Assembly (NCBI GenBank): GCA_046349035.1
Contig: JAXMDC010000002.1
Span: 237,093-301,092, forward strand
Origin: Bauldia sp.
Lineage (GTDB): Bacteria; Pseudomonadota; Alphaproteobacteria; Rhizobiales; Kaistiaceae
DNA length: 64,000 nucleotides
Direction of reading: 5' to 3'
Below the pieces are notes generated by a model. It had not been told where the DNA came from. It did no database searches and saw only the letters and a program-made list of their open reading frames with translations. Within the stretch, counting starts at the first letter, position 1; each line of letters starts with the position of its first letter. The position numbers and the translations under genes are program-made. Shown here one piece after another: positions 21,569 through 38,185 of the stretch.

Positions 21569-22591
21569 ATGCGTTCGTTGAGATCGACCGGCAGGGCCCG
21601 CCCGGCGGCCGGCCTCGCCGCCGCCCTTGCCCTTGCAGCGCTAGCGACCGCCGCCCTGCCGGGCCACCCGCTTGCCCAGGCCGCCGCCGACGCCGCCTGC
21701 AGCGGTGGCGTCCTCGCTGCCCTCGGTTCTCCCCCGGCGATCCGCTGCCTCCGCCCGGGCGATGTCTTCCGCGATTGTGCCGAGCCTTGCCCGGAGATGG
21801 TCGTCGTTCCCGCCGGCAGCTTCCTCATGGGCTCGCCCGAGGGCGAGGCCGACCGCAGCGAGGACGAGGGGCCGCTGCATCGCGTCGCCATCGCCGCGCC
21901 CTTCGCCGTTGCCCGCCTGGAAGTGACGCGGGGCGCCTTCGCCGCATTCGTCGCCGAGACCGGCTACGCCCCGCCGCCCGGCTGCCATGTGGCCATTCCC
22001 TCCGGCTTTGCCGACGGGCGCAACAAGACCTTCCGCGATCCCGCCTTCGCGCAGGACGACCGCCATCCGGCGGTCTGCGTCAGCCACGACGACGCCGACG
22101 CCTTTCTCGCCTGGCTCACGCGGCAGGCCGGCACGCCCTACCGGCTGCTCAGCGAGGCGGAGTGGGAATACGCCGCCCGCGCCGGCAACGCGTCGGATTT
22201 CGCCTTCGGCGCGCCCGAGCGCCAATGCGCCGCCGTCAACGCCGCCGACCTCGCCTTCGAAGCGACCTTCGCCGGCTGGGAGGCCGCCGATTGCGACGAT
22301 GGCGCGGTCTACACCGCGCCCGGCGGCAGCTATCCGCCGAACGCCTTCGGCCTCCACGACATGACCGGCAATGTCTGGGAGTGGACGGCCGACTGCTACC
22401 ACGAGGACTACACCGGCGCCCCGGCCGACGGCACGCCCTGGCTCGCCGGCGAGTGCCGCACCCGCGTCTCGCGCGGCGGCTCCTTCGTCGACGCGCCGCG
22501 CTACCTTCGCCCCGCTTACCGCGACGGCAATCCGCCCGACGCCCGCTTCAGCGTGCTCGGCTTCCGCGTCGCGCGGAGCCTGACGCGCTGA
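21569..22591 (+). CDS. Formylglycine-generating enzyme (FGE-sulfatase/SUMF1-type) domain protein, secreted.
   Basis: MVVVPAGSFLMGSP...HRV..., ...YRLLSEAEWEYAARAG..., GNVWEWTADCY, RVSRGGSF: the canonical FGE-sulfatase domain blocks. Confidence 0.8.
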   Translation: MRSLRSTGRARPAAGLAAALALAALATAALPGHPLAQAAADAACSGGVLAALGSPPAIRCLRPGDVFRDCAEPCPEMVVVPAGSFLMGSPEGEADRSEDEGPLHRVAIAAPFAVARLEVTRGAFAAFVAETGYAPPPGCHVAIPSGFADGRNKTFRDPAFAQDDRHPAVCVSHDDADAFLAWLTRQAGTPYRLLSEAEWEYAARAGNASDFAFGAPERQCAAVNAADLAFEATFAGWEAADCDDGAVYTAPGGSYPPNAFGLHDMTGNVWEWTADCYHEDYTGAPADGTPWLAGECRTRVSRGGSFVDAPRYLRPAYRDGNPPDARFSVLGFRVARSLTR

Positions 22592-22723
22592 GCGCTGGCG
22601 CCGAGCGGAATCCGCTGTAACCTTTCCCCCGCCTGCAGCGAATAGAGTGATTAGCCCCGGCCGCTGCGCTGGGGGCGAAGCAGCCATTGAGCGAAACACC
22701 CATTGAGGGGAGCCGCAGTTCCG

Positions 22724-23122
22724 ATGATCACCCGCCGCCATCTCTTCGCCCTGGCCGCCGTCGCCGGCGCCGCCGCCATGCTTCCGATCGCCGCGCCGGC
22801 CGCCGAGACCAAGCCCTATACCGACGGCGCCTTCGACATCGCCCAGAAGGCGGGGAAGTCGATCCTGGTTCAGATCCACGCCACTTGGTGCCCGACCTGC
22901 GCCGCGCAGGCGCCGATCCTCGCCGACCTCGAGCGCGATCCGAAGTTCCAGAACCTCGTCGTCTTCCATGTCGATTTCGACGATCAGAAGGACGCCGTCC
23001 GCCGCTTCGGCGCGCGCATGCAGTCGACGCTGATCACCTTCAAGAACGGCCGCGAGACCGGCCGCTCGGTCGGCGAGACCCGCCGCCCCGAACTCGCCGC
23101 GCTGCTCGCCAAGGCGGTCTGA
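22724..23122 (+). CDS. Periplasmic thioredoxin-family protein (WCPTC active site). Tat/Sec signal.
   Basis: MITRRHLFALAAVAGAAAM signal. HATWCPTCAAQAP thioredoxin CxxC motif. Confidence 0.75.
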   Translation: MITRRHLFALAAVAGAAAMLPIAAPAAETKPYTDGAFDIAQKAGKSILVQIHATWCPTCAAQAPILADLERDPKFQNLVVFHVDFDDQKDAVRRFGARMQSTLITFKNGRETGRSVGETRRPELAALLAKAV

Positions 23123-23211
23123 GCCGCGGCGCGGCCGCCGTCCCCGCGCCCCCCACGGGGACGGTTGGCCGGCGGCGCCCCCGCCCCCGGCCGCCCGGCG
23201 CCTGACGCACC

Positions 23212-23943
23212 ATGTCCCTTGCGACGCTGGCTCTCGCCTTCCTTGCCGGGGCGCTGACCGTTCTTTCGCCGTGCGTCCTGCCGTTATTGCCGATCGTCCT
23301 CGCCAGCGCGGCCGGCGGTCGTCGCTTCGGCCCCCTGGCGCTCGCCGCCGGTCTGGCGACCTCCTTCGTCGCTGTCGGCCTTTTCCTCGCGACCGCCGGC
23401 TTCGCCCTCGGCATCGACGACCGCGCCTTTCGCACGTTCGGCGCCGTCGCGATGATCGCCGTCGGCGCGCTGCTGACCGTGCCCGCCCTGCAGACGCGGC
23501 TTGCCGCCGCCGGCGCCCCGCTCGCCCGCTGGGCCGACGCTCGCATCGCCGGCATCGGCGGCGGGGAGGGGACGGGGCCGCTCGGCCAATTCCTGATCGG
23601 CCTCCTCCTCGGCGCGGTGTGGAGTCCCTGCGTCGGGCCGACGCTCGGGGCGGCCTCGGTGCTGGCGGCGCAGGGCGAAGCGCTCGGCGAGGTGGCGCTG
23701 ACGATGCTTCTCTTCGGTTTCGGCGCCGCCGCGCCGCTGGTCGCGATCGGCCTTGCCTCGCGCGAGGTGTTGACGCGCTGGCGGAGCCGCCTGCTGCATG
23801 GCGGCCGGGCGCTTAAGATGGCGATGGGCGCGGTGTTTCTGGTCCTCGGCCTTGCCGTGCTCACCGGCCTCGACAAGCGCATCGAGACCGCCCTGGTCGA
23901 ACTTTCGCCGGACTGGCTGACCGCCCTGACGACGCGCTTCTGA
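23212..23943 (+). CDS. ccdA: Cytochrome c biogenesis/thiol-disulfide transporter CcdA (DsbD beta-domain family).
   Basis: 243 aa. Two conserved Cys in TM helices (LSPCVLPLLP and WSPCVGPTLG), diagnostic of CcdA/DsbD. Confidence 0.8.
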   Translation: MSLATLALAFLAGALTVLSPCVLPLLPIVLASAAGGRRFGPLALAAGLATSFVAVGLFLATAGFALGIDDRAFRTFGAVAMIAVGALLTVPALQTRLAAAGAPLARWADARIAGIGGGEGTGPLGQFLIGLLLGAVWSPCVGPTLGAASVLAAQGEALGEVALTMLLFGFGAAAPLVAIGLASREVLTRWRSRLLHGGRALKMAMGAVFLVLGLAVLTGLDKRIETALVELSPDWLTALTTRF

Positions 23944-23995
23944 TACCGCGGGTCGGCCTACCGCGCGGCCGGCGCGGCCCGCTCTCCCGCAACAA

Positions 23996-24072
23996 AAGGG
24001 CGGCGCCCTGCCGCCGCCCTTCTTGCTTGCGGGCCCGGCCGCAGGGACGGCCGGGCCCGCTTGCTCTTCTGC
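23996..24072. terminator. Two tandem GC-rich hairpins after ccdA; the second is bidirectional for the convergent gene.
   Basis: Hairpin 1: AGGGCGGCG-ccctg-CCGCCGCCCT, followed by CTTGCTTG. Hairpin 2: GCGGGCCCGGCC-gcagggac-GGCCGGGCCCGC (12-bp perfect stem), followed by TTGCTCTTCTGC. Confidence 0.5.
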
Positions 24073-24078
24073 TCCCGG

Positions 24079-24303
24079 CTAGTCGCCGGTGACGACCTGC
24101 CACTCCGCTGCGCCTTCGCGCACGGCGCGGCCGGCAAGCCCGCCGAGAAACGCCATAAGCTTGGCTCCGCCATCCGGCGTCAGCGCGAAATGGCAGCGGC
24201 TTCCGTTGGCGGTCACAACTGTCACTCCAATCATTTGGCCATTGTCGATCAATTGCCCCTCAAACGCGCTTGCCACCGGCAGCGCGCCCTCTTCCTCCTC
24301 CAT
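24079..24303 (-). CDS. Small hypothetical protein (74 aa).
   Basis: MEEEEGALPVASAFEGQLIDNGQMIGVTVVTANGSRCHFALTPDGGAKLMAFLGGLAG... Plausible globular composition. Low certainty. Confidence 0.3.
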   Translation of the reverse strand: MEEEEGALPVASAFEGQLIDNGQMIGVTVVTANGSRCHFALTPDGGAKLMAFLGGLAGRAVREGAAEWQVVTGD

Positions 24304-24563
24304 TCTCAACTCCAACGTGCTAGAAAACTCCCGGCGAAATGGCCGACTCCGCACGCGCCTACATTGCGACAAATCAAAAACGCGCGGCAAGGGTGCCGGC
24401 CTCCCCGGTAACAAAAACAACGCTCGGGCTGGAGGGTGGTTCCCGGCAAGGCGCTGCAGCCGCCCCGGCGGCGGCGGCAGCAGACAGGTTCGCGTGCGCG
24501 ATCGCCGGCAGCGAGGCGGAAGCGCTGGGAACGAGGGGCTATTGGCGGGGGGAAGCGCTCAGC

Positions 24564-25115
24564 TCAGCGCCGCGTGGCGCTCGCCGGCAGCTCGATGCGG
24601 CTGAGGCGCCAGCTGCCGCTCCACGTCCAATGCGTGGTGACGACCGGGCTCTTCTCCGAGCTGGCAAGATCGAGGCGGAAGCTGATCGGCCCGCTGAAGA
24701 ACGCCCAGCGGACATTGCCGAGGCCGAAGCGCTGCGTGCTCGACCCGCCGGAGGCCGGTGCGGTCGCGCCTTGCCCGGCGGGGGCCGCCGGTGCGGCATT
24801 GCCGCCGGAGCCCGGCCGCACGCCGGAGAGCAGCGAGACGATCCCCGCCGGCGTCAGATACTGCTGCAGCGCCGCGTCGATGAACGGCCGCCCGAACGCG
24901 CCGAGGATGGCGTTCTGCTGTTGGTTGCGGGCAAGGCCGGCGGAGAGTTCGTCGGCGAGGCTGGCGCGAAGCGCCGGCCAGTCGACCGCCGCGTCGATCC
25001 CCGCCGCGTCGCGCGCTTCGAGCGCCCGGGCAAAGAGATAGATCGAGACATAGGGCCAACCCGCCCAGCCAAGGACGACAACCCCAAGCGCAATCAGAAC
25101 CAGGCGGCGCCGCAT
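24564..25115 (-). CDS. Membrane-anchored hypothetical protein.
   Basis: Start at MRRRLVLIALGVVVLGWAGWPYVSIYLF (N-terminal anchor), then a soluble domain. Confidence 0.5.
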   Translation of the reverse strand: MRRRLVLIALGVVVLGWAGWPYVSIYLFARALEARDAAGIDAAVDWPALRASLADELSAGLARNQQQNAILGAFGRPFIDAALQQYLTPAGIVSLLSGVRPGSGGNAAPAAPAGQGATAPASGGSSTQRFGLGNVRWAFFSGPISFRLDLASSEKSPVVTTHWTWSGSWRLSRIELPASATRR

Positions 25116-25466
25116 GGCGTCAGACTCGGCCAATCCGCGCCCCGGAGCAAGGGGGAGGGGGCGTTAGTCGCGGCGCCGAACGCAGGTCGCCGCATATGCG
25201 GTCGCGATAAGCAGCACGCCGATGGCTTCGGTCTCGTGTCCATCAAGCGCGTAAAGGACGGCGACGATGCAGTGAGCGACGGCGATGGCAGCGTGGCGAA
25301 GATCGATGGTCACGCGGAGTGCCTCCGGTTGAGAGGCCTCCCATTCACAGCATGTCGAAGGTGCCGGCAACGCACAGGCTATGAGACGGCCGGAAGCGAG
25401 GCGGTTGCTGCTCGCCCCCGCTCGATCTGCCTGTCACATGCGTGACGAGCGTGACCGATCGCGCCC

Positions 25467-25823
25467 CTAACTCCCCGTGCGCTTCAGCAGTGCTTCGGCG
25501 ACGCGGCTGACTTGGGCGCGTTCTTCGGGCGTGGCGCGCTTCAGATTGTCGAGGATCGACCAGAGCGCGTCGGTGTCGAGCGGGTTGCGGTTGATGAGGT
25601 CGGTGTCCTCGCAGCCGAGCGCCCAGGAGAGCGATTCGATGATCGGCTGCGTATAGGGCTGCTTGCCGTTTTCCAGGCGGCTTAGGGTCGACTTGGAGAA
25701 GCCCTCCAGGCGGTCGCGCACGCGCTCCACCAGACGGTCCTGCGACAGCTCGCGATGGAGCCGCCACTCGCGGATGAAAGTCCGGCGCAAGGGCGCCAGA
25801 CGCGATGAAACGCGCTTCGGCAT
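25467..25823 (-). CDS. XRE-family helix-turn-helix transcriptional regulator (phage-repressor-like).
   Basis: 118 aa. LSQDRLVERVRDRLEGFSKSTLSRLENGKQPYTQPIIESLSWALGC is an HTH_XRE domain. Confidence 0.7.
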   Translation of the reverse strand: MPKRVSSRLAPLRRTFIREWRLHRELSQDRLVERVRDRLEGFSKSTLSRLENGKQPYTQPIIESLSWALGCEDTDLINRNPLDTDALWSILDNLKRATPEERAQVSRVAEALLKRTGS

Positions 25824-25915
25824 TATTCCCTCTTACGGAACAATGCCTTAGGAGTCGTTACGGCTAGCAGCAACAAAACCGCTTGACAGTTATTCCATGA
25901 GAAGGAATATTCCTT
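25818..25915. promoter_or_regulatory. AT-rich promoter region upstream of the XRE gene with two related palindromic operator-like sites.
   Basis: First site: GGCATTATTCCCTCTTACGGAACAATGCC, overlapping the start codon. Second site: a 32-nt near-perfect palindrome TTCCATGAGAAGGAATATTCCTTCTTATGGAA. Half-site is TTCCnTnAGAAGGAATA. Confidence 0.5.
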
Positions 25916-26083
25916 CTTATGGAACGCCTGGAAGCGCCCGTAGAAGGGGTAAAACCCTCTCCCCACCTCAGGGTCCCCGTTGCCGAGAGCCGCGCTCGCC
26001 CAAGGGGCGCCAGGCCGGCAGGGGCGCTTGCCCGCGTTCCAAGGAGCGGCCCGCTGTCCTCCCCAGCCCTGCCGCATCCCGGG

Positions 26084-26212
26084 GCGGCGCCTTTTGGCGT
26101 CGCCCCGCTTTTCCCTTGGAAGAATTGGGCGGCGCCTTCTGGCGTCGTCCCGCTTGTCCCTCGGAAGAACTGCGCGGCGCCTTGCGGCGTCGCCCCGCTT
26201 TCCCCTTCGGTA
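26084..26212. repeat. About 2.8 copies of a 45-bp tandem direct repeat in the intergenic space.
   Basis: Unit GGCGGCGCCTTYTGGCGTCGYCCCGCTTNTCCCTYGGAAGAAYTG, repeated head-to-tail (26084-26128, 26129-26173, then a partial copy). Confidence 0.7.
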
Positions 26213-26236
26213 CCCGCAGCCGCCGCGGCGCCCCGC

Positions 26237-26770
26237 CTAGTCGCCGGCGTAGAGTGCCGGCGGGGTGGGGGCAGGTGCCTCGCTCCCGGCGAATGTCTTG
26301 GCGATCCGGCCGAGCGCGGCGAGGAATGCGCTGCGCGGGAAGACCAGCCGCGCCACGATCACCCGCTCCGTCGCCCGCCCATGCGGCCGGTCGGCATAGC
26401 AGGTGATGCGCACGTGATCGCCGTGATCCTCCGGCGGCATCACGCCGGTGACGAAACTGTCCAGCACCAGCGCCGGCTCGATCGGCACCGGCTCGCGCTC
26501 GCGCCGCGCGCTCCGTCCGCCGAGCGGCAGCGCCTTGGCGGCGGCCATCGCCGCGATCTCTGCCGGCCGCTCCTCGGCAAGGCCTCCGGGCGCCGCCGCC
26601 GCGCCGTCCGCGGCGGCCTTCAATCCCGTCCTCTGCGCCTCTGTAGCTTCGCTTGTGCCGGCCCCCGTCGGCTGTTCGATCGGCTGGGCGCCCTTCTCGC
26701 CCGCCTTGCCCAACTCCGGCGGAACGGGCGCGCCTCCGGCGCCCTCCACCAGTTTCATGCGTCCCATCAA
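26237..26770 (-). CDS. Hypothetical protein (C-terminal real part of a long Arg-rich artefact ORF).
   Basis: From MKLVEGAGG... to ...LVLDSFVTGVMPPEDHGDHVRITCYADRPHGRATERVIVARLVFPRSAFLAALGRIAKTF. Balanced composition. Confidence 0.35.
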   Translation of the reverse strand: MMGRMKLVEGAGGAPVPPELGKAGEKGAQPIEQPTGAGTSEATEAQRTGLKAAADGAAAAPGGLAEERPAEIAAMAAAKALPLGGRSARREREPVPIEPALVLDSFVTGVMPPEDHGDHVRITCYADRPHGRATERVIVARLVFPRSAFLAALGRIAKTFAGSEAPAPTPPALYAGD

Positions 26771-27224
26771 GACCTCCGCATCGCGGACCGCACCCCCTGC
26801 CGACACAGCACGGAAAGATTGTACAGGCGTTCCCGTTTTGTCCGAGATCACGACTGCGTGACAGTGCGACCCGGCCCCAAAGAGGCGGCCAAAGCGTGAG
26901 CAGCGCGGCGTTTCTGGTCCTGCCGATGGCCGCGATAGCGGCGCTGGCAAAGGCGGCGCTCCACGTCGAAATGCGTCTCGCGGCATCGGAGAAGACGAGT
27001 AGCTGCAGAGGCATACGCCAGGTCGGCGCGCCGCTCCGGCCGCTGCCGCGGCGTCGGCGCGAGCCGGCATTACCGCCGGACGGGGAGGGGACCGGCATCG
27101 GCTCGCCGCTCGTTCCCCTCGCCGCGTCGCGATCCGGCTGCGCCCGTCGCGAACGTACAATCTTCCACCATAACGGGAACGGCCCTCCCACTTCCGCTCC
27201 GCCGGTGCCGGCGAATGCCGCCAA

Positions 27225-27857
27225 GTGGGCGCCCCCGCCGCTCCTGCCGACGCTCCGCGGAGGGTGGCGGTGAGGCGCCCGGCGCGGGGCGGCCTGCCGC
27301 TGGTGCGCTCGCCGCGTCTCCTCACCGGCGTCGAGATCCAGCGCCTCGCCGACGACCTCGGCGAACTGAAGCGCCGCGTCGCCGGCCTCAGCGGCGAGGT
27401 CGGCAAGCTGCGCGATCGCCTCCGGCCGCCGCAGGGCGTAGAGGCGCTCCACGCCAAGGCGCGGCCGGCGATCGGCACCATCCAGCGGGTGGTGGCCGCC
27501 CATTACGGCATCGACCCGCTGGAGTTCGTGTCGCAGCGGCGGGGCCGGATGACGGCGATGGCGCGCCGCATCGCCATCTACCTGGCGCGGCACATGACCG
27601 TCGCCTCGCTGCCCGAGATCGGCCGCGCCTTCGGCGGCCGCGACCACTCGAGCGTCTTCCATGCCATCCGGCGCCTGGAGAGGCTGATGCTCGCCGACCC
27701 CGCGCTCGCCGTCGAGGTCTCCGAGCTTCGCCAAGCGGTGATCGCCAGGGCCGGCGACGCGGTCTATTTCTCCTCGGTCGGTAAAGGCGAGGCGCCGCTC
27801 CCGACGTCGGCGCCGAACGAGCCGACCGGAACGGCCGAGCCGGAGGCCGGGCGATGA
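27225..27857 (+). CDS. DnaA C-terminal (HTH) domain protein, a phage/GTA-associated stand-alone DnaA_C. The true start is probably the internal GTG at about 27272.
   Basis: VVAAHYGIDPLEFVSQRRGRMTAMARRIAIYLARHMTVASLPEIGRAFGGRDHSSVFHAIRRLERLM matches the DnaA domain IV DNA-binding fold. No AAA+ domain. Confidence 0.7.
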   Translation: MGAPAAPADAPRRVAVRRPARGGLPLVRSPRLLTGVEIQRLADDLGELKRRVAGLSGEVGKLRDRLRPPQGVEALHAKARPAIGTIQRVVAAHYGIDPLEFVSQRRGRMTAMARRIAIYLARHMTVASLPEIGRAFGGRDHSSVFHAIRRLERLMLADPALAVEVSELRQAVIARAGDAVYFSSVGKGEAPLPTSAPNEPTGTAEPEAGR

Positions 27858-29227
27858 CGGCTCTCCCCGTGCCGCCGACGCCGGCCTCGACCGACCTCCG
27901 CGACCTGCCGTTCATGCCGCTCGATGTCGGGCGTCTGCGCGACAGCGAACTCGCCGGCATCGCCAGCGCCGAGGCGTTCCGCGCCTGCGTCCTCTCCTGG
28001 TGCGTCGCCTGGCACCAGGTGCCGGCCGGCAGCCTCCCCGACGACGACGCGGTGCTGGCCCGCCTCCTCGGCTTCGGCCGCAACGTCAAAAGCTGGCGGC
28101 GGGTGCGCGCCGCCGGCGGCCTGCACGGCTGGTTCCGTTGCAGCGACGGCCGCCTCTATCACCCCATCGTCGCCGAGAAGGTCGCCTATGCCGAACGCCG
28201 CCGCGAGGCCGCGCGCGAGCGGACGCAAAGCGCCCGCGCCGTGGCGCTCGCCCGCCGCCGTCCGGGGGAGGGTGCCGTTCCCGCCGTTGCCGCCGCCCTG
28301 CCGCCGCAGGCCGCGCCGGCCTTCCCGCCGCTCCCGCCGGATGACCGCGCGGCTGCCGCCGCCGCGGCCCGCGCCGAGGTCGAGACCGTCGACGCCGCTT
28401 CGCCGCAACCCTCTGTGACAGACCTTGCGACAGAGCCCATAGGAAGAGAAGGAGAAGAAGAGAAGGAAGAGCCAAGCGCAACCGGCGAGCACCGCCCGCC
28501 CGTCGCCGGGGGCGACGGATCGGGCCCGCCGCTGGCGCCGGAACTGCTGCGCCGCGCTGCGCTGGTTTTGCCTTCGGCAGAGCTGCCCTCGGGCGATTGG
28601 CGGCCACCGGCTGCCGACCTCGCGCTCCTCCGCGCCCGCCTCCTCGCCGCCGCCGCACCGCCCGACGACTGGCCGCTCGCCGCTGCCGCCAGCCTCGCTC
28701 CGCTGCCGCAGCTTCTCGCCGAGGGCTGCGACCTCGGCCGCGACGTCCTGCCGACCGTCGCCGCCGTCGCCGACGCTGCCCGGAGCGCCGCTCCGCCGCG
28801 CACCATCGCCGCCTGGAGCTACTTCGCCCCGGCGATCCGCGAGGCCCATCGCGCCCGCCTCGCCGCCGGCGACTCCGCCGCGCCGGCTGCGCTCGCCGCC
28901 GAGGGCGGGGAGGGGGCCGCCGCCGCAGCGCCCCGCGTCTTCGTCCCGCTGAACGACCGCCGCTTCTCCGCCCTCCGCAAACGCTGGCGGACCGAGCGCC
29001 ATCGCGAGCCGCCGACCGTCGCCGGCAGGGGCGGCAGCGGCTGGTACTTCGATGCCAGTTGGCTGGAGGGCGAGGCCGCCGACGCTCTCCCGTCATCTGC
29101 TGGCGGCGGGGAAGGCGCTGCGGGGGGCGGTGCCAAGGAGCACCCCGTCGGTGAGGATGGACCCCGACCCGCCGAGCCGCCCGCAGCCGCCCCGCCGCCC
29201 GCCGGAGGCGCCGATGCCGCGCGCTAA
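27854..29227 (+). CDS. DUF1376 (YdaU-like) domain protein, an alphaproteobacterial prophage replication-associated protein.
   Basis: The N-terminus LPFMPLDVGRLRDSELAGIASAEAFRACVLSWCVAWHQVPAGSLPDDDAVLARLLGF...YHPIVAEKV is the DUF1376 signature. Long Ala/Pro-rich C-terminal tail. 4-nt overlap with the DnaA_C gene. Confidence 0.7.
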   Translation: MTALPVPPTPASTDLRDLPFMPLDVGRLRDSELAGIASAEAFRACVLSWCVAWHQVPAGSLPDDDAVLARLLGFGRNVKSWRRVRAAGGLHGWFRCSDGRLYHPIVAEKVAYAERRREAARERTQSARAVALARRRPGEGAVPAVAAALPPQAAPAFPPLPPDDRAAAAAAARAEVETVDAASPQPSVTDLATEPIGREGEEEKEEPSATGEHRPPVAGGDGSGPPLAPELLRRAALVLPSAELPSGDWRPPAADLALLRARLLAAAAPPDDWPLAAAASLAPLPQLLAEGCDLGRDVLPTVAAVADAARSAAPPRTIAAWSYFAPAIREAHRARLAAGDSAAPAALAAEGGEGAAAAAPRVFVPLNDRRFSALRKRWRTERHREPPTVAGRGGSGWYFDASWLEGEAADALPSSAGGGEGAAGGGAKEHPVGEDGPRPAEPPAAAPPPAGGADAAR

Positions 29228-29350
29228 GGCCCGCCGCACGGGATCGGCCAACGAGGCGGCGCGCCCGCCCGCCAGCTCGCCGAGCGCGAGAAGCGCGGGC
29301 TCGGCGCCTCGACGCCGGAGCGCCTCTGCCACTCCGGCGCGCCGCTCGCG

Positions 29351-29806
29351 GTGATCGCCGGCACGCGCACGCAGCGCATCTCCGTCGCCCCGCTCGACCG
29401 CCTGGCGGGGAAGCGCATCAAGGGCCGGCCGCTGCTGACGCGCCGGCAATACGAGGCGGGGGAGAGGCTGCGCGACGACGGCTACCTCGCCGGCTTCATG
29501 CGGAGCCCCGGCATGACGCTCGAAGTCATCGACCGCGGCTTCCAGGCGAACGGCCCGGCCTTCGCCGACAGCGAGCGCGCCGCCGCCGCGATGCGGCGCC
29601 TGCGCCGTGCCAAGGCGGCGCTCGGCCGCCCGCTGGCGGTGGTGCTGGAAGCGGTGATCTGGCCCGAAGACGACATCCACACGATGAGCGCCATCGGCAA
29701 GAAGCTCTTCAACCGCGCCGACGCCACCGCCGCCGAAGCCGCCGCGATCGAGGCCGTCAAGCTAGCGCTGGAAACGCTGGCCGACCACTACGAGGGGCGG
29801 GGGTGA
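29351..29806 (+). CDS. Hypothetical protein (prophage-module associated).
   Basis: 151 aa, balanced composition. Sits directly downstream of the DUF1376 gene. Confidence 0.45.
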   Translation: MIAGTRTQRISVAPLDRLAGKRIKGRPLLTRRQYEAGERLRDDGYLAGFMRSPGMTLEVIDRGFQANGPAFADSERAAAAMRRLRRAKAALGRPLAVVLEAVIWPEDDIHTMSAIGKKLFNRADATAAEAAAIEAVKLALETLADHYEGRG

Positions 29807-29813
29807 GGGGGGC

Positions 29814-30077
29814 CTAACCCCCCACCACGCCCGCGGCGAAATGCGCGCCGAGGTAATACGGCCAGAGGATGATGCCGACGACGCCGTCCCAGAACGTCAG
29901 CTTCAAGTAGCCGATGGTGAAGAGCCAGGCGGCGAACCAGAGGCCGCCGAGATTGGCGTGCTGCTCGATCTTGATGCGCTGGCCGCTCCGGAAGACCTGC
30001 GTCTTGCCGTTGGTGGTGACGGCGACTTCCTCGCCTTCGCCCTTGCGGGTGTTGATCTCGATCGTTGCCTGACCCAT
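29814..30077 (-). CDS. Small membrane protein; paralog of the 30283..30471 protein.
   Basis: 87 aa. LGGLWFAAWLFTIGYLKLTFWDGVVGIILWPYYLGAHFA aligns with LAGMVWFAAWLFSIGYLRLSFGQGILALLLWPYYLGRAFA. Confidence 0.5.
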   Translation of the reverse strand: MGQATIEINTRKGEGEEVAVTTNGKTQVFRSGQRIKIEQHANLGGLWFAAWLFTIGYLKLTFWDGVVGIILWPYYLGAHFAAGVVGG

Positions 30078-30282
30078 GGCATCGCCCTCCTGAAACTGCG
30101 GGCGCCGGCCGGCCCTTGGCCGTAACGGCCCCTAAGGCGCGGCGCTTTGCGGCGCCGCTGTGCTGGACTGGGGCGGTTATCTCGCCCCGCCGCGCCAAAC
30201 CGGCTCGACCTTACGATTCACATGGGGCGCCTCGGCCGCCCCGACAACTCCGTAGCCTGCCGGAGCGCCGGTGCCGGCGGCC

Positions 30283-30471
30283 TCAGGGCGCGCCGCGGAG
30301 CCGCCCGGCAAACGCCCGGCCGAGATAGTAGGGCCACAGCAGCAGCGCCAGGATGCCTTGACCGAACGAGAGGCGGAGATAGCCGATCGAGAACAGCCAG
30401 GCGGCGAACCAGACCATCCCGGCGAGATTGCTGGCGGTGTTGACGACGAGGGCAAAGCCTTCCTGCGGCAT
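30283..30471 (-). CDS. Small membrane protein (62 aa); paralog of the 29814..30077 protein.
   Basis: Start at the internal MPQEGFALVVNTASNLAGMVWFAAWLF.... The upstream part of the ORF is Arg/Pro junk. Confidence 0.45.
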   Translation of the reverse strand: MPQEGFALVVNTASNLAGMVWFAAWLFSIGYLRLSFGQGILALLLWPYYLGRAFAGRLRGAP

Positions 30472-31216
30472 GGTGCAACCCTCCGGGCCGCCTCCGCGCG
30501 GCCCCGTTGGAACTCGGCCTCCCCGAGAATGGCGCCCCTTATCGGCGTCCGTTTGGCGCCGGCCGCCTGACGGCGACGCCGAAGCAGCGCTGGGGCAAGG
30601 CCGGGCGGGACGGGACGGCCCAGGCAGACCGTCGATCCGTTCCCGCGGCGGCCCAGCCCCGCGTGCGTCGTTCAGCTCCCGGCCGGACAAGAGGCCCGAC
30701 CCTCAAAACCGCTTCCTCACCAGCGGCAACTCGGCTCGGCCGCCGCCACGCAGCCGCCGAAGGAGCCCCGCGCGGGGGAGCGGAAGCGGGCCGCACCCCC
30801 GTCGCCCGTCCGCCAGCACACGGCGCCTCCCGAGGGGAGGCCCGCCCGGCGGCGGGTTGTGGCGGACGGAGAAGGGCTCGTTGGCGACGATAGCTACCCT
30901 TCTCCGACCGCATGTCGAGGCCAAGGCCCCGACCCACGTGCCGATCCCACCGCCATTATGGCTGCCGGGAGAGAGCCCGCCCCTCACGCCGGCGCTGGTA
31001 GCCGGATCAGCGTTTGCACCATGCCTCGGCACTGCCGCCGCGGCCTTGATCCAAAGCAAGGCACGGGGGGTGTGCACGGCTCGCCGGCGGCCCGTCAGGG
31101 CGCAGCCGGCCGCCGCCGCGGAGCAGGCGAGGCGAGGCCCGGCGCCCGCGCGCTTTTCCCGCTTTTTTCCCGCCGCCTTCTATATGCTGCCGGCAAGCCC
31201 TATATCCGGAACCCCT

Positions 31217-32785
31217 ATGCCCACCGACGAAGACGACGACAGCGGCAAGCCCGGCGGCACCCCGCCGGAAGGCTCCGGCCCGCCGAAAGGCCCGCGCAAG
31301 AACCGCGCTTCCGGCGGCGGGAGCGGCAAGGACGAGGGTTCCCCGCGCCCGCCCGCCGCGCGCGGCACGCCTTCGCGCGAGGAGGAAGACGAAAGCCCCT
31401 GGTCGAGCGGACCCTGGGGCGAAGGGCCACGCGAGCGCGGCCGCGGCAAGGGGCCGTTCGGCGGCGGCCCGTTCGGCAGCAACGGTCCCTTCGGCGGCAA
31501 CGGTCCCTTCGGCAATGGCGGCTTCGGCAGCGGTCCCAGGCGGAACCGCCCCGGCGGCGAGCGCCCGGCGGCCGACTTTACCGCGGCCCTCAGGGATGCC
31601 GGTGCCCGCCTCGGCGAGGCGCTCCGCGGCGGCCGGTTCGGCGGCCCCGGCGGGCGTTCGCCGCGTGGCGCGCGGATTGCCGTCAGCGCCGCGGCGCTGG
31701 TCCTGCTCGGCCTCTTCCTGTTCAGCCGCTTCACTTTCGCCGTCGGCCCCGACGAGGCCGGCGTGGTGCTCCGCTTCGGCGGCCTCAATCGCGAGGTCGG
31801 CTCCGGGCTGCACCTGCGCTGGCCGTACCCGATCGAGGATGTGCGGCTGCCCAAGGTGACGCGCATCTATCGCATCGCCGTCGGCTTCGCCGCCAACGAT
31901 CGCAACCCGACCGGCGGCGCCGACGTGCCGCGCGAGAGCCTGATGCTGACGGGCGATGAGAACATCGTCGACCTCGACTTCACCGTGTTCTGGTCGGTGC
32001 GCGACGCCAAGTCCTATCTCTTCGCCATCGAGGACGCCGAGGGAACGGTGAAGGCGGTTGCCGAAAGCGCGATGCGCGAGGCAGTCGGCAAGGCGCAGAT
32101 CCTGACCCTCCTCACCGGCGCGCGGAGCGAGATCGAGGTGAGCGCCAAGAGCATCCTGCAGGCGACCCTCGACCGTTACGGTGCCGGCATCGACATCCGC
32201 GACGTGCAACTCCTGAAAGTCGATCCGCCGGCGCCGGTCATCGCCGCCTTCCGCGACGTCCAGGCGGCGCAGGCCGACAACGCCCGCTCGGTCAACGTCG
32301 CCGCCGCCTATCTCAACCGCGTCGTCCCGGCGGCGCGCGGCCAGGCGGCGACCATCCTTGCCGGCGCCAACGCCTATCGCGACCGCATCGTCGCCGAGGC
32401 CACCGGCCAGGCCGACCGCTTCGCCAAGATCGAGGCCGCCTATCGCCTGGCGCCGGATGTCACGCGCATGCGCATCTATCTGGAGACGCTGGAAGCGCTT
32501 TTCGCCGGCATGCAGAAGGTTGTCGTCGACGCCCCCGGCCGCCTGGGGAGCTTCATCCCGTTCCTTGGCCTCGGCGATCTGCCGAACAGCCAGCCGCCGG
32601 CCGCCGGCGTCAGCGCGCCCGCCTCGGCGGCCCCGGCCGCTCCCACCGTCGGCGCCGCCGCTCCGGCGCAGCGCCCGCCGAATTTCGTCGCCGCCCCCGA
32701 CAACACCGCCCCCCGCCAGGCCGCGCCCCCCGCCGCCGCCCAGCGCCCGGCGCAGAACACCGGCCAGCGCCTCCTCGGGCGCTGA
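31217..32785 (+). CDS. hflK: HflK-like SPFH/band-7 membrane protein (FtsH modulator family).
   Basis: Gly-rich N-terminus (GPFGGGPFGSNGPFGGNGPFGNGGFGSGP), then a TM segment, then an SPFH domain with the typical HflK motifs (LHLRWPYPIEDV...VTRIY, ...MLTGDENIVDLDFTVFW...). Pro/Ala-rich C-terminal tail. No hflC follows. Confidence 0.8.
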   Translation: MPTDEDDDSGKPGGTPPEGSGPPKGPRKNRASGGGSGKDEGSPRPPAARGTPSREEEDESPWSSGPWGEGPRERGRGKGPFGGGPFGSNGPFGGNGPFGNGGFGSGPRRNRPGGERPAADFTAALRDAGARLGEALRGGRFGGPGGRSPRGARIAVSAAALVLLGLFLFSRFTFAVGPDEAGVVLRFGGLNREVGSGLHLRWPYPIEDVRLPKVTRIYRIAVGFAANDRNPTGGADVPRESLMLTGDENIVDLDFTVFWSVRDAKSYLFAIEDAEGTVKAVAESAMREAVGKAQILTLLTGARSEIEVSAKSILQATLDRYGAGIDIRDVQLLKVDPPAPVIAAFRDVQAAQADNARSVNVAAAYLNRVVPAARGQAATILAGANAYRDRIVAEATGQADRFAKIEAAYRLAPDVTRMRIYLETLEALFAGMQKVVVDAPGRLGSFIPFLGLGDLPNSQPPAAGVSAPASAAPAAPTVGAAAPAQRPPNFVAAPDNTAPRQAAPPAAAQRPAQNTGQRLLGR

Positions 32786-32942
32786 GCGCAGGCGCGGCGG
32801 CTTCCCTGCGGCCCTTCTGCCACAGTGATTCGGAAACGCACGTTTGACGGACGATTCGCCCTGTAGCCGCCGACCGTGAGGTGTAAATCTTAACGCAGCA
32901 GAGTGCCGACCCGGCGAGCGCGAGCCGGGAAGGGGGGTAACA

Positions 32943-33605
32943 ATGTTGCGTCGATTGTTTATGTCCGCCGCCGGCATGCTGGCCTTGACCGTGGCGGCCA
33001 GCGCCGCCGACCGGGTGACGGTGCGGCCCGCACCACCTCTGCCGGCGCCTTTCAGCTGGGCCGGCATCTACACCGGTGCCGAAGTCGGCTACGGCTGGGG
33101 CAAGGCGACCTTCGTCACCAGCGGTTTTGAGTTCGGCAATCCCGACCTGACCGGTTTCCTCGGCGGCGTTTATGTCGGCGGCAACTTTGCCGCCACCGGG
33201 CTGGCCGTGGTCGGCGTTGAGCTGAACGCCGACTTCGCCAACCTCTCCGGGCACTTCTCCGACATCAACACCGGCGACGCCGAACAGCAGTGGGAGAGCG
33301 CGCTCCGCCTCCGCCTCGGCATCCCGGTCGGCAATGCGCTTCTTTACGGGGCCGTGGGCGTGGTGGTCGGTGGCTTCGAGTACCACGCCAACGGCGGTGG
33401 CGTCGCTGTTTTCGGCTACCATCGCTATGCCGCCGGCGGCACGGTCGGGGCCGGCGTCGAATACGCGCTCGACAGCCACCTGATCAGCCGCATCGAGGTT
33501 CGCTACAACGACTTCCTCGACATTCACGGCGCGTTGCCGGGCTTCGTTCTTCATAACGATGCCTGGACGGCGCAGGTGCGCGGCGGCGTCGCATACAAAT
33601 ATTGA
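32943..33605 (+). CDS. Outer-membrane beta-barrel protein (Omp25/Omp31/RopB-like family).
   Basis: 220 aa. Signal peptide, WAGIYTGAEVGYGWGKA start, ...VEYALDSHLISRIEVRY..., and C-terminal GGVAYKY ending with an aromatic residue. Confidence 0.8.
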   Translation: MLRRLFMSAAGMLALTVAASAADRVTVRPAPPLPAPFSWAGIYTGAEVGYGWGKATFVTSGFEFGNPDLTGFLGGVYVGGNFAATGLAVVGVELNADFANLSGHFSDINTGDAEQQWESALRLRLGIPVGNALLYGAVGVVVGGFEYHANGGGVAVFGYHRYAAGGTVGAGVEYALDSHLISRIEVRYNDFLDIHGALPGFVLHNDAWTAQVRGGVAYKY

Positions 33606-33660
33606 CAGGTCATCGGCTGGCGCCCCGGCGCCGTCCAGAGTTAGTGGGGGAGTTAGGGCC

Positions 33661-35289
33661 GTGACAACCAAGATTAGCCGTTCAGCGCTCGCCGGAGCTT
33701 CGTTGCTCGCGCTGGCCGGAGCGGCCGGGGAGGCAAATGCACAGGCCCGCGCTCTCGGCAACTGGAGCGGCGCCTATCTCGGCGCCGAAATCGGCGGCCA
33801 GTGGGGCACCACCACCTTCAGCGATCCGTTCGGTCCGTCGATCTTCGGCGACGACGTCCGCACGCCGGGCTTCCTGCTCGGCCTCGTCGGTGGCTACAAC
33901 TGGCAGGCACCCGGCTCCGCCATGGTGCTCGGCATCGAGGGCACGATTGATGCTCTCGACTCCAACGGGCAGAACACCTGCTTTGCCTATTCGCCGACGT
34001 ACTTCTCCGCGAACTGCGAAGTCCGGCCTCGGGCGTCAGCGACGTTGACGGGACGCCTCGGCCTGGCCACTGGTCCGGTCCTTCTCTACGCCAAGGGCGG
34101 TCTCGCCTGGATCGACGACGACATCACCATCACCACCAATGGTGTGTTCGGCGTGCCGGGCGGCCCAGTGAAGGTCCATGCAACCCCGTTCGGCTGGACG
34201 GTCGGTTTCGGTGCCGAATACGCGCTGAACAACGCGCTTTCCGTGAAGGTCGAATACGACTACCTCGCCTTCACCGGCGTCGGCGTGTCGTCCTCCCTCA
34301 GCTCCAACAACTTCGACACCCTCAACGTGCCCCGCACACCGGCCGATGCCGACCAGAACGTCAGCCAAGTCAAGCTCGGCCTGAACTACAGTCTCGGCGG
34401 CCAACTGCCGGCGGCCCCGCTGCCGCCCTTCGTGGTGCCGCCCGGCGCCGTCGGCTGGACCGCGACCATCGGCGCCCGCTACGTCTACGATACCGGCTCC
34501 TTCCAGAAGGGGCTCTACCCGCCGAGTCAAATCTCGCAGCTGACCTACGACGACATCCGCGTCCACAACGGCGAGATCATCGCCCGGGTCGACACCCCGC
34601 AGGGCATCTTCGCCAAGGGCGCCATCGGCTGGGGCAGGACCGCCGGCGGCAACATGACCGACGAGGACTGGATACTCTCCGGTAACATTGGCTACTCCAA
34701 CACCAACTCGGCCAAGGTCGACGGCAATTCGATCTACGGCCACATCGACCTCGGCTACAACCTCATCGACCGGCCGGACGCTCGGTTCGGTTTCTTCGCC
34801 GGCTACAGCCATCTGCGCGAAGAGATGAACCCCTTCGGCTGTGCGCAACGCGCTTCGACGGTCGGCGGCATCTGCGTGCCCACCATCCCGACGTCCGTTC
34901 TCCTCATCACCGAGACCGACACCTGGCAGTCCGTGCGGGTCGGCGCCAACGCCAAGTTCGCGCTCGGCAACCGCTTTAACCTGGAAGCCGACGCCGCGTA
35001 CCTCCCTTATGTCCACTTCAACGGCGTCGACCACCACTGGCTGCGCGACCCGTATCCGCTGAACTTCCTGCAGACGGGGGAAGGAACGGGCACGGAGATC
35101 GAGGCGGTGCTGTCCTACGACGTGACCAACGCTCTCAGCCTTGGCCTCGGCGGCAAGTACTCGGCGCTGTGGACAAAGGACGGGTCTTACACGGCACCAC
35201 AGCTCGGCTTCGGGCCGGCTCCGGCGGTCGCCCACACCGACAATTGGGGCGCCTTCGTCCAGGCGACCTACAAGGTCGGCGGCCCGTAG
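33661..35289 (+). CDS. Large outer-membrane beta-barrel/porin-family protein. GTG start.
   Basis: Signal peptide (AGASLLALAGAAGEANA), Omp25-like first strands (WSGAYLGAEIGGQWG), a long Gly/Tyr/Asn-rich barrel, and a C-terminal aromatic. Confidence 0.7.
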   Translation: MTTKISRSALAGASLLALAGAAGEANAQARALGNWSGAYLGAEIGGQWGTTTFSDPFGPSIFGDDVRTPGFLLGLVGGYNWQAPGSAMVLGIEGTIDALDSNGQNTCFAYSPTYFSANCEVRPRASATLTGRLGLATGPVLLYAKGGLAWIDDDITITTNGVFGVPGGPVKVHATPFGWTVGFGAEYALNNALSVKVEYDYLAFTGVGVSSSLSSNNFDTLNVPRTPADADQNVSQVKLGLNYSLGGQLPAAPLPPFVVPPGAVGWTATIGARYVYDTGSFQKGLYPPSQISQLTYDDIRVHNGEIIARVDTPQGIFAKGAIGWGRTAGGNMTDEDWILSGNIGYSNTNSAKVDGNSIYGHIDLGYNLIDRPDARFGFFAGYSHLREEMNPFGCAQRASTVGGICVPTIPTSVLLITETDTWQSVRVGANAKFALGNRFNLEADAAYLPYVHFNGVDHHWLRDPYPLNFLQTGEGTGTEIEAVLSYDVTNALSLGLGGKYSALWTKDGSYTAPQLGFGPAPAVAHTDNWGAFVQATYKVGGP

Positions 35290-35313
35290 CGGCTCGCATC
35301 CGCGCGGAATAGG

Positions 35314-35342
35314 AAACGCCGGCCTACTGGCCGGCGTTTTCG
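35314..35342. terminator. Rho-independent terminator (bidirectional) between the convergent porin and BA14K genes.
   Basis: AAACGCCGGCC-tact-GGCCGGCGTTTT: a 10-bp stem flanked by A-run and T-run. Confidence 0.6.
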
Positions 35343-35368
35343 CTTGGGCAGCGTTCCGTACTTTCTTC

Positions 35369-35695
35369 TCAGCGCCGCGGCAGCGGTGGCGAGACGCAGC
35401 GATGGCGCCGTCCGTCGGCGCCGAAATAACTGTCGCTCGCCGCGTCGTAGTTCCAATAGGTCGCCGCGCACCAGGCGCGGTGATAGGCAGGATAGTCCGA
35501 GGGTGGTTGCGGCGGCGGGGTCGCCGGCCATCCCTTTTCGTAGGGACTGACAAACCAAGGGGGAAAGTCGCCGCCGCCCACGACTGCGGCTGCGGCGGGA
35601 ACAGCGCCGACCGGCCCGAGTAGGGCCGCCATCGCCACCGCTCGCGCAGCGGCCAAGTGCGGGACGGCACGACGTTTGGCAAACAGTCTGATCAT
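35369..35695 (-). CDS. BA14K-family secreted protein.
   Basis: Signal peptide, then the C-terminal AWCAATYWNYDAASDSYFGADGRRHRC, characteristic of the BA14K family. Confidence 0.6.
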   Translation of the reverse strand: MIRLFAKRRAVPHLAAARAVAMAALLGPVGAVPAAAAVVGGGDFPPWFVSPYEKGWPATPPPQPPSDYPAYHRAWCAATYWNYDAASDSYFGADGRRHRCVSPPLPRR

Positions 35696-35797
35696 TTCAC
35701 CTAAAGCTAAGTGCGCGGCAGGTCGCAATCAACGCCCCCCTGCGGGCGCGAAAGATAAAGGGCGCCCCGATGGGGGCGCCCGGTCGCGGCTGGTGCT

Positions 35798-36064
35798 TTA
35801 GCGGCGGTTGTCGGCGGCGATGCCGGCCTGCACTTCGGCGATGGCGTTGCGCGTGGCGGCGATCGCCTTGACGCGGTGGCCGGCCTTGTCGGCGGTGGCG
35901 AGCTGAAGGTCGGCGAGCGCCTTGTTGAGGTTGCCGAGCGCCGACGCCATCATCGGCTGCGGTTCGGCTGCCGCCGGTGTCGCCGCAAGCGCCGCGGCCC
36001 CCGCAACGATTCCCCCTGCCATCGCCAGCGCCGCCTCGCGGCGGTTGAGCACGTCCTTGGTCAT
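35798..36064 (-). CDS. Small periplasmic protein (Tat-like signal), hypothetical.
   Basis: MTKDVLNRREAALAMAGGIVAGAAALAATPAAA, then a helical Ala-rich domain. Confidence 0.45.
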   Translation of the reverse strand: MTKDVLNRREAALAMAGGIVAGAAALAATPAAAEPQPMMASALGNLNKALADLQLATADKAGHRVKAIAATRNAIAEVQAGIAADNRR

Positions 36065-36284
36065 TCTAGTCCTCGTGATTGAGACATGACGAAATCGGCG
36101 CCACGCCACCCGGTTCCCCCTGACGGCTCGCCGCGGCACTGTTCTTAGCTCGCGCCGCGCGGAGCGCCAAGGCAGCATGGGTTGTGCGGCAACGGCGCAG
36201 CGGCGGCCGTGGCGGAGTGCGCACTCCGCTTGCGAAGCGGGGGAGGGAATTGCGATCCGTCCCGCGAGGGGGCGGATCGCCGGC

Positions 36285-37325
36285 CTAGCCCGGCCAGTCC
36301 TCGACCATCTCCGGCGAGAGCGGTGCCGGCGGCGCGGCGGGCGGGGGAGGGGCGACGACCAGGCGGTAGAGATGCCAGGTGGCGTGGCCGAGGAGCGGCA
36401 GCGTCAGCGCCAGGCCGAGGAAGAACGGCAGCGACCCGGCGACCAGCAGCGTGGCGACGATCAGCCCCCAGGAGGCCATCACCACCGGGTTGGTCCGTAC
36501 CACTTGGACCGAGGTCTGCACCGCCGTGTCGAGATCGACATGGCGGTCGATCAGCAGCGGGAAGGCGATGACGCTGACCGTCAGCACCACCGCGGCGAAG
36601 GCGAGGCCGACTAGGCTCCCGACGATGAGCAACGCCCAGCCGGCGGGGGTGGCGAGAAGGCCGGAGAGGAACTCGCCGAGGCGCTGCGGCTCGCTGTCGC
36701 CGAGCACCAGCCACGACATCGTCTGCGCCGTCGCCAGCCACAGCAGGAAGATGAGGATGAGTTCCAGGCCGAGCGCCAGGATCGGCCGGATCGCCGGCGA
36801 GCGGAAAACGCTGAGCGCCCGCCGCCAGGAGACCGCCATGCCGCGCTCGCGGCGGCGGCTGACCTCATAGAGCGCCAAGACGGCGAAATGGCCGACCAGG
36901 GCGAAGCCGGCGAGGAGCGGGAACAGCAGGCTCCAGATGTGGTAGCCGCCGATCAGGCGGGCGAGGAGCAGGCCGGCGATCGGGTAGAGGGCGGTGAGAA
37001 AGATGACGTGGCTCGGCATCGCCTTGAAATCGGCAAGCCCCTTGCGGAGGGCGGTCTCAAGATCGGCTAAGGCGATGGTGTTGACCTGCGGCGCCGCCGC
37101 CGCGTGGGTGCGCTCCGACCAGATGCCGGGGCGGCTGCGGCCGCCGAGCGCGTAGCGCAGGCCCGGCCGCGCCCCGAGCTTGCCGGCCAGGCCGAGCCGC
37201 GCGCCGAGCTGCACCGGGTCGAACGCCCGAGCGCCGCCCGGCTGTTCGCCGGCCGCGATCGGTCCCGCTCCGAGCGTTCCGCCATGCAAGCGATCGATTT
37301 GAGCGACATCGGTTTGAGCGACCAT
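36285..37325 (-). CDS. DUF2189-family integral membrane protein. Start uncertain; an internal GTG around 37214 is possible.
   Basis: NTIALADLETALRKGLADFKAMPSHVIFLTALYPIAGLLLA is the DUF2189 N-terminal signature. At least 5 TM helices. Confidence 0.6.
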   Translation of the reverse strand: MVAQTDVAQIDRLHGGTLGAGPIAAGEQPGGARAFDPVQLGARLGLAGKLGARPGLRYALGGRSRPGIWSERTHAAAAPQVNTIALADLETALRKGLADFKAMPSHVIFLTALYPIAGLLLARLIGGYHIWSLLFPLLAGFALVGHFAVLALYEVSRRRERGMAVSWRRALSVFRSPAIRPILALGLELILIFLLWLATAQTMSWLVLGDSEPQRLGEFLSGLLATPAGWALLIVGSLVGLAFAAVVLTVSVIAFPLLIDRHVDLDTAVQTSVQVVRTNPVVMASWGLIVATLLVAGSLPFFLGLALTLPLLGHATWHLYRLVVAPPPPAAPPAPLSPEMVEDWPG

Positions 37326-38156: not shown

Positions 38157-38185
38157 CTTGAACGCGCTTTGCGGCTGCCTATCTG
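38157..38185 (+). promoter_or_regulatory. Sigma32 (RpoH)-type heat-shock promoter candidate upstream of hsp20.
   Basis: CTTGAA, 15-nt spacer, CCTATCT. Matches the alphaproteobacterial RpoH consensus CTTG-N17-CYTATnT, about 85 nt upstream of the ATG. Confidence 0.4.

Follow-up and report, generated by a model that had tools for sequence, protein, structure and literature searches.

A probable stranded regulatory segment of a temperate phage, with phage-branch relatives of GafY and GafZ, in a Bauldia chromosome

Introduction

What kind of element sets a phage-like repressor, replication genes and a putative late regulator side by side in a bacterial chromosome that shows no other phage genes around them? 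The question is raised by a block of ~5 kb (25.4-30.5 kb) in a 64-kb stretch of ~71% G+C from the chromosome of a Bauldia sp. metagenome-assembled genome (MAG); we call the whole 64-kb stretch the window and number all features by it. An earlier reading of the letters, hereafter the original prediction, had described the block as a degraded prophage-like replication module with an XRE-family repressor, palindromic operators, a tandem repeat, and an overlapping gene pair for a stand-alone DnaA domain-IV protein (DnaA_C) and a DUF1376 protein. Three features described here were absent from it: a DUF6456 gene (29214-29806), a gene for a 176-amino-acid protein on the opposite strand (26237-26767, -) and a + strand promoter (25883-25911). 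The DUF6456 gene turns the block into a replication-plus-late-regulator module and ties it to the regulation of gene transfer agents (GTAs). We propose that the block is probably a stranded immunity, replication and late-regulator segment of a temperate alphaproteobacterial phage, devoid of integrase, structural and lysis genes, and, judged by sequence, its regulators fall within the GafY and GafZ families, on their phage branch.

A BLAST search with GafA, the activator of RcGTA, finds proteins annotated DUF6456, and in Hyphomicrobiales a small gene for a DnaA-like protein usually stands ahead of the gafA homologue, mucR or another helix-turn-helix (HTH) gene lies upstream, and sufE lies downstream (PMC9638019). 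The Caulobacter pair consists of GafY, a DnaA domain-IV homologue that used to be called HdaB, and GafZ, and the pair is repressed by RogA (PMC9632790); the XRE proteins Rtr/Cdx also repress gafYZ in Caulobacter (PMC10688885). GafZ is an antiterminator (PMC11150451), roseophages carry GafA homologues (PMC6363796), and a Bartonella preprint describes a Q21-like fold of GafZ and GafA (bioRxiv 10.1101/2024.11.20.624540). As the literature ties DUF6456 and DnaA domain IV to GafA and GafYZ, a GTA-activator locus was the first alternative that we tested.

Since the genome is so G+C-rich, the G+C content of the third codon position (GC3) separates real genes from chance open reading frames (ORFs), and it was used for fixing the gene set. 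An independent Logan short-read assembly contig from the same organism (L004) covers window positions 22355-39226 at 99.98% identity, and proteins of the block have identical NCBI entries (MFO1183442.1 and MFO1183443.1, annotated as MAG, Bauldia sp., and encoded on a contig of 1.13 Mb). Statements on the absence of phage genes cover the independent annotation of 22-39 kb in L004 and 20 further genes of the window that were scanned.

Results

An operon whose gene order recurs in phages

The DnaA_C, DUF1376 and DUF6456 genes form an operon of overlapping genes. The first of them (27225-27857, +) encodes a stand-alone DnaA domain-IV protein of the phage type (Bac_DnaA_C, E = 3.3e-24), which known DnaA structures match at 1e-17. 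The protein has 195-210 amino acids and an N-terminal coiled-coil-like extension; an alternative start, GTG at 27270, stands behind a GGAGGG ribosome-binding site, and the independent gene call in L004 begins there. It is 43% identical (2e-22) to a protein of Bradyrhizobium phage ppBeUSDA76-2 and, among the NCBIfam models, scores 92.8 bits with DnaA TIGR00362 versus 27.5 bits with PRK06030. A search of the viral collection with DnaA_C found nothing, and the exact database look-up of this protein and of P0001 returned no record.

The second gene (27854-29227, +) encodes a DUF1376 replication-initiator-like protein of 457 amino acids and overlaps the DnaA_C gene by 4 nt, in agreement with the overlapping pair that had been described. 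Its Pfam score of 29.6 bits falls slightly below the cut-off of 30.1, and it matches PHROG 22470, 'replication protein', at E = 2.8e-37. A conserved N-domain (residues 1-130), of the type present in phage O-like replication proteins, is followed by a unique Ala/Pro-rich C-terminal half that is of low complexity and has no relatives. Identity between the N-domain and the replication proteins that Burkholderia and Pseudomonas phages encode is 49-64% (64% over 106 amino acids and 49% over 168 amino acids for phage Magia), and in prophages other homologues of the protein belong to the early operon, with recT on one side and terminase genes on the other. Iterons were found neither in nor beside the DUF1376 gene, and no DnaA boxes were found within the block. 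Where the N-domain gives way to the C-terminal half, about mid-gene, the otherwise very G+C-rich sequence has a purine-rich tract of lower G+C (28430-28475, GGAAGAGAAGGAGAAGAAGAGAAGGAAGAG), whose position recalls that of the lambda ori in gene O.

The third gene (29214-29806, +) encodes, when intact, a DUF6456 protein of 197 amino acids that belongs to the phage subfamily of the GafZ/GafA family. It scores 45-48 bits with Pfam PF20057, above the cut-off of 26.3, and the fold of its structure model is like that of sigma region 4 and of the Q21 antiterminator, a likeness also reported for GafA and GafZ. A tblastn search with DUF6456 against phage and plasmid records gave no match.

Three sequences of phage or prophage type have the order DnaA_C, DUF1376, DUF6456 as well, in each case immediately upstream of a terminase gene, a portal gene or both. 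In Bradyrhizobium phage ppBeUSDA76-2 (L002) DnaA_C is followed by GIY-YIG and DUF2312, then by DUF1376, DUF6456 and, within 0.6 kb, terminase L; its DUF6456 protein is detected by our own profile at 1e-13 and by Pfam at 1.1e-05. The IMG/VR prophage L081 (UViG_2630968843_000002) has DnaA_C, DnaB helicase, nuclease, DUF1376/Phage_rep_org_N, DUF6456, terminase L and portal, and contig L091 (JAWVGW010007037, GCA_040384425.1) has GcrA, DnaA_C, DUF1376, DUF6456, a 598-amino-acid gene and an SU10 portal on one strand. The claim that DnaA_C and DUF1376 co-occur in alphaproteobacterial phages holds for all three. The DUF6456 protein of the window is closest to those of L091 (40% identity, 105 bits) and L081 (37%, 83 bits), whereas chromosomal GafZ-like proteins reach 35-50 bits. 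In these phage elements terminase and/or portal follow within ~0.5 kb, and recombination or helicase genes precede. The window has the same one-strand order, with DUF6456 as the last regulator, but a convergent membrane-protein gene and housekeeping flanks take the place of the late genes.

In L091 a promoter-like site, TTGACG-16-TAGGAT with an upstream TG, is located at the DUF6456 stop codon (5974-6001), and a gap of 0.5 kb separates it from the large late genes. The site recalls the lambda late promoter PR', which follows Q, yet a single match of this kind is within chance expectation, and no consensus match was found after DUF6456 in L081 and L002.

A repressor gene that diverges from a predicted operator-covered promoter

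The XRE gene that had been predicted is present (25467-25823, -): it encodes an HTH_31 repressor of 118 amino acids (Pfam E = 2.9e-08), and the GC3 frame plot supports coding. The protein matches PHROG families of transcriptional repressors and regulators, and Pfam detects no peptidase S24 domain in it. Related regulators are encoded by two phages, Rhizobium phage RHph_I1_23 and Sinorhizobium phage PBC5, with 37-39% identity over 89% of the length; relatives in metagenomes are merely 36-43% identical and show no linkage to such modules. Together, the phage relatives of the XRE protein and the identity of the DUF1376 N-domain to phage replication proteins bear out the view that the block derives from a phage.

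Pointing away from the XRE gene is a predicted sigma-70-type promoter, TTGACA-17-AATATT (25883-25911, +), which matches the consensus at 10 of 12 positions and is the only such site in 25300-30800 (mean of 0.2 in shuffled sequences). The AT-rich character ascribed to this region is real, its G+C content being 0.49-0.50 as compared to ~0.71 for the window. Also confirmed is the 32-nt near-perfect palindrome (25893-25924), whose arms are complementary at 15 of 16 positions (94%) and which consists of two abutting inverted 16-nt units, the predicted operator copies O2 and O3; they overlie the promoter's spacer and its -10 element. What had been taken for a second palindrome over the repressor start codon is a single copy, O1 (ATTCCCTCTTACGGAA; 16-nt unit ATTCCYTCTYAYGGAA), at 25825-25840, which covers the GAGGGA ribosome-binding site of the XRE gene, lies 1 nt from its ATG and is the third copy of the unit ATTCCTTCTTATGGAA, with two mismatches. 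The three copies compare with 0.04 expected by chance, and the motif TTCC-N7-GGAA is present in all three and nowhere else in the 64 kb. The arrangement is that of a phage module, in which the repressor gene diverges from a promoter with repeated candidate operators. From these sites, XRE would repress the outward promoter and at the same time limit its own expression.

Comparison with chromosomal gafYZ loci

An alternative is a working master activator of the GafY/GafZ type: the block could encode the activator of an RcGTA-like agent or of a defective prophage located elsewhere, with XRE in the role of RogA or Rtr/Cdx and DUF1376 as a passenger. In common with GafY/GafZ and GafA, the window has DnaA-IV and DUF6456 in one operon and an HTH repressor gene nearby; it is the DnaA-IV and DUF6456 gene pair that defines split GafA homologues (PMC9632790, PMC9638019), and the repression of Caulobacter gafYZ by XRE proteins (PMC10688885) fits as well.

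Chromosomal loci were collected by a DUF6456 pattern scan, built on a 10-sequence alignment and run on one genome per species, which gave 71 loci; full-length relatives were all at most 38% identical. A DnaA_C gene (~130-170 amino acids) directly precedes a long DUF6456 gene (~250-345 amino acids) at 30 of the 71 loci, and at one (L047) the two are fused. These 30 loci come mostly from Hyphomicrobiales and unclassified alphaproteobacterial MAGs. Synteny is conserved, and ROS_MUCR upstream and SufE downstream were confirmed for related loci, as in the published arrangement. A DUF1376 gene within 10 kb of DUF6456 was found at none of the 71 genome loci, and DnaA_C is the sole family that the window and the chromosomal gafYZ-type loci have in common.

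The block is not at the mucR-gafY-gafZ-sufE locus that is conserved in many Hyphomicrobiales; DUF2939/DsbD and Band_7/outer-membrane-protein genes flank it instead. Its DnaA-IV gene is neither fused to DUF6456 nor immediately upstream of it, as the 1.4-kb DUF1376 gene intervenes. The DnaA-IV protein is DnaA/phage-like and falls outside the PRK06030/GafY type; for three chromosomal GafY-like proteins the scores are 63-80 bits with PRK06030 and 45-63 bits with DnaA. It shares the stand-alone domain IV with HdaB, the small protein now called GafY that was reported to act on replication control, and differs from it in its length, its N-terminal extension and its low score on the PRK06030 models. 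The window DUF6456 protein is of the short phage-subfamily form, with 45-48 Pfam bits versus 142 for a chromosomal Sphingomonad-type protein (L019), and the XRE protein is a plain one that lacks the LexA-like (S24-like) domain of RogA. No GTA-like genes were found among the scanned genes of the 64-kb window. By its sequence features, the window locus fails several of the defining marks of a chromosomal gafYZ locus. We therefore consider a GafYZ-type activator unlikely here, although the retention of the DUF6456 gene, described below, speaks for it.

The DUF6456 gene is probably intact and under purifying selection

In the window the DUF6456 gene appears broken. GC3 is ~1.0 from 29228 on, well ahead of the first canonical start codon (29351), and the N-terminus MxRAKxxR with which homologues start is encoded from an ATG at 29214 in another frame. 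Compared to L004 and to a relative, contig L001, the window is short of one G (at 29265) in a (GC)n run after 29264, and this splits the gene. In L004 the gene is intact and encodes 197 amino acids; its overlap with the end of the DUF1376 gene, at the stop codon, measures 14 nt. A 1-nt error in the MAG consensus has probably cut short the NCBI protein MFO1183443.1, which has 151 amino acids.

The truncation in both the window and the NCBI annotation could otherwise be read as a sign that the block is a prophage fragment, inert and decaying, in which the frameshift is real and marks pseudogenisation, and the missing late genes and the low-complexity C-terminal half of DUF1376 would agree with it. 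Against this, the gene is whole in the independent assembly and a one-G difference in a (GC)n run is typical of consensus errors; the other ORFs are all intact with host-like GC3; and the promoter is well preserved, as are the three operator copies. The ratio of nonsynonymous to synonymous substitution rates (dN/dS) is below 1 as well. For DUF6456 it is 0.42-0.53 against orthologues from two other lineages (74-80% identical), and for the two membrane-protein genes that follow it is 0.49 (87-amino-acid gene) and 0.16 (62-amino-acid gene) against L001; because dS is depressed by the strong GC3 bias, all of these are probably too high. By this measure DUF6456 is under purifying selection, and it may be domesticated. 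Decay into an inert fragment is accordingly improbable in our estimation.

Intactness in three lineages and purifying selection are also what a working activator would show, and L001 adds to this. In that relative, whose DUF6456 protein is 80% identical, DUF6456 is followed by a gene for 225 amino acids (986-1663; no Pfam or PHROG match) and then by the same two membrane-protein genes, with no terminase; the contig ends too soon to show the region upstream of DUF6456. Since the downstream genes are the same and terminase is missing there too, the stranded state seems to be old and the regulator kept, which suggests long retention in the absence of late genes in cis.

A candidate leader RNA, tandem hairpins and a convergent gene

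The + strand promoter would give rise to a non-coding transcript or leader of ~190 nt (25918-26116, +), a candidate XRE-repressed small RNA both ends of which are predicted. It contains no ORF with a coding signature. Its 5' part forms a predicted long-range stem of 20 bp (25920-39 / 26022-41; fold z = -3.65), and a hairpin with the 7-nt loop UCCUCCC, which is anti-Shine-Dalgarno-like, precedes a strong terminator. Rfam returned sub-threshold matches to the leader, none near its gathering score (Pxr 27.4 bits, CcsR1 19.5 bits).

The repeat search recovered the 45-bp tandem repeat at 26082-26207 (2.8 copies, 85% matches), and it is confined to this spot within the window. The iteron-like character attributed to it did not hold. 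Its three tandem units (26082-26216) are G+C-rich hairpins with T-rich tails that look like terminators on the + strand: copy 1 has a 12-bp stem (-32 kcal/mol, z = -5.1) followed by CUUUUCCC and is the top terminator-like site in the scan. We rejected the iteron reading, as these are T-tailed hairpins and not sites of 17-22 bp, and between them and the replication gene, ~1.6 kb away, stands another gene. Because the minus-strand hairpins of the units precede AGUUCUUCC, the units may also terminate the convergent 176-amino-acid gene.

That gene (26237-26767, -) has a GC3 of 0.87-0.92 in frame and was independently called in L004. Its protein has no match in Pfam, PHROGs, PADLOC, PDB sequences and phage genomes, and a single-sequence AlphaFold model was unusable (predicted local distance difference test score, pLDDT, of 48). 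In the lower-G+C gap between this gene and the DnaA_C operon, the sequence ACTGCGTGACAGT (26853-26865) is similar to the -35 region of the promoter under XRE control (ACCGCTTGACAGT, 25878-25890) and may mark the promoter of the operon.

Neighbouring genes and missing functions

Two small membrane proteins, described as paralogues in the original prediction and indeed 48% identical (E = 4e-19), are encoded on the opposite strand behind DUF6456. The gene for 87 amino acids (29814-30077, -) is convergent with DUF6456 at a distance of 7 nt, and the gene for the 62-amino-acid paralogue (30283-30471, -) follows; both proteins have a hydrophobic C-terminal half, and the 87-amino-acid protein matches no family in Pfam, NCBIfam or PHROG. 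The flanks are housekeeping genes, with thioredoxin, DsbD and a DUF2939 protein, which has no database relative besides itself, on one side, and Band_7 and outer-membrane proteins on the other.

As had been stated, integrase, capsid and terminase genes are missing from the block, and neither the block nor the scanned genes of the window contain an integrase, structural or lysis gene. PADLOC defence-system families gave no match, and the block has no plasmid match. PADLOC and PHROG likewise detected no packaging genes; of the features of a satellite, the block has only a replication-protein homologue.

Elsewhere in the window and far from the block, a perfect DnaA box (TTATCCACA), the sole exact copy in the 64 kb, lies at 1292-1300 (-). 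At 42338-43623 (+) three neighbouring ORFs combine a GC3 of 0.87-0.95 with an unusually low first-position G+C (0.38-0.52); the one that was scanned has no Pfam match.

Discussion

Based on the recurrent gene order, the phage relatives of its proteins and the divergent repressor switch, we propose that the block is probably what is left of the immunity, replication and late-regulator region of a temperate alphaproteobacterial phage. Several observations weigh against this proposal. The search for tRNA genes was negative, the block is not flanked by direct repeats of at least 13 bp that could represent attachment (att) sites, and the G+C content and GC3 of the block are host-like, the exception being the lower G+C of the promoter region; for these reasons the phage origin is argued from homology and gene order. 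No close relative of the genome was available against which the block would show up as an insertion. The pairwise similarity between the DUF6456 proteins of the window and of ppBeUSDA76-2, the one named, cultured phage, is weak (E = 0.015). The 176-amino-acid gene, on the opposite strand, separates the XRE switch from the DnaA_C operon; the promoter of that operon was not found, and an operator search over the 64 kb found no extra XRE operators near it, so that the link between switch and operon is drawn from their proximity.

In the ancestral phage, DnaA-IV and DUF1376 would serve early regulation and replication initiation, and DUF6456 would then switch on the late operon (terminase, portal, head) by activation or antitermination, as GafZ does. 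As the late genes are gone here, the window regulators either lie idle as remnants or work in trans on some other element. Stripped prophage pieces are common in bacterial chromosomes, and if the block is merely a remnant it is routine; it may be a remnant of this ordinary kind that is still in use.

The architecture is reminiscent of lambda (cI, OR, PR, O, Q and PR'-6S RNA-tR'). As in lambda, the repressor gene diverges from a strong operator-covered promoter, the gene for an O-like initiator is followed by that for a late-gene regulator with a predicted Q-like fold, and a short promoter-proximal transcript would end at strong terminators. Unlike lambda, the block has neither cro/cII nor P, and sequence homology to cI, O or Q is lacking; the short transcript that the terminators would end adjoins the repressor gene and is not 3' of the Q-like gene, and a gene on the opposite strand stands between switch and operon. 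AlpR/AlpA of Pseudomonas aeruginosa and the Q-like genes of Escherichia coli cryptic prophages are stripped-down prophage regulators that the host keeps. By analogy, with one weak fold match behind it, the block might likewise be a case of a repressor and a Q-like regulator kept without particle genes; it differs from the AlpR/AlpA type in that no lysis cassette follows on the same strand and the repressor is not LexA-like.

On a further reading, the host has domesticated the cassette as a self-contained master switch with effects in trans. Relief of XRE repression would then allow the phage-type GafY-like and GafZ-like proteins to activate and antiterminate a distant GTA, particle or lysis locus, and the ~190-nt RNA would either serve as the switch's second output or mark where the DUF6456 protein engages RNA polymerase. 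We regard this as doubtful. If true, the locus would be a living intermediate between the early operon of a phage, of which DUF1376 has been kept, and a chromosomal gafYZ locus.

A phage satellite or phage-inducible island, in which a helper would lift XRE repression and replication would start from the 45-bp 'iterons' with the aid of DUF1376 and DnaA-IV, is very improbable: the compact set of repressor, operators and replication-protein gene without structural genes and the lambda-ori-like position of the purine-rich, lower-G+C tract in DUF1376 would suit it, but no integrase, att repeats, tRNA or packaging-redirection genes were found in the sequence and genes scanned, the 45-bp units are T-tailed hairpins far from the replication gene and not 17-22-bp binding sites, there is no iteron array in or near DUF1376, and the block has no DnaA boxes, so that this part of the original prediction is given up.

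GafA homologues in roseophages (PMC6363796) and the Q-like fold (bioRxiv 10.1101/2024.11.20.624540) were already known. The recurrent order ahead of terminase and portal genes puts the GafZ/GafA family at the position of the phage late regulator, that of lambda Q, and puts GafY-type proteins in the phage early operon, which fits the antitermination model of GTA control and a phage origin of the GTA regulators. The locus also flags a problem of annotation, in that the entry MFO1183443.1 is probably truncated. Because its regulators have stayed intact, under purifying selection and with no late genes in cis, the locus is a small, tractable case for studying whether hosts reuse such regulators.

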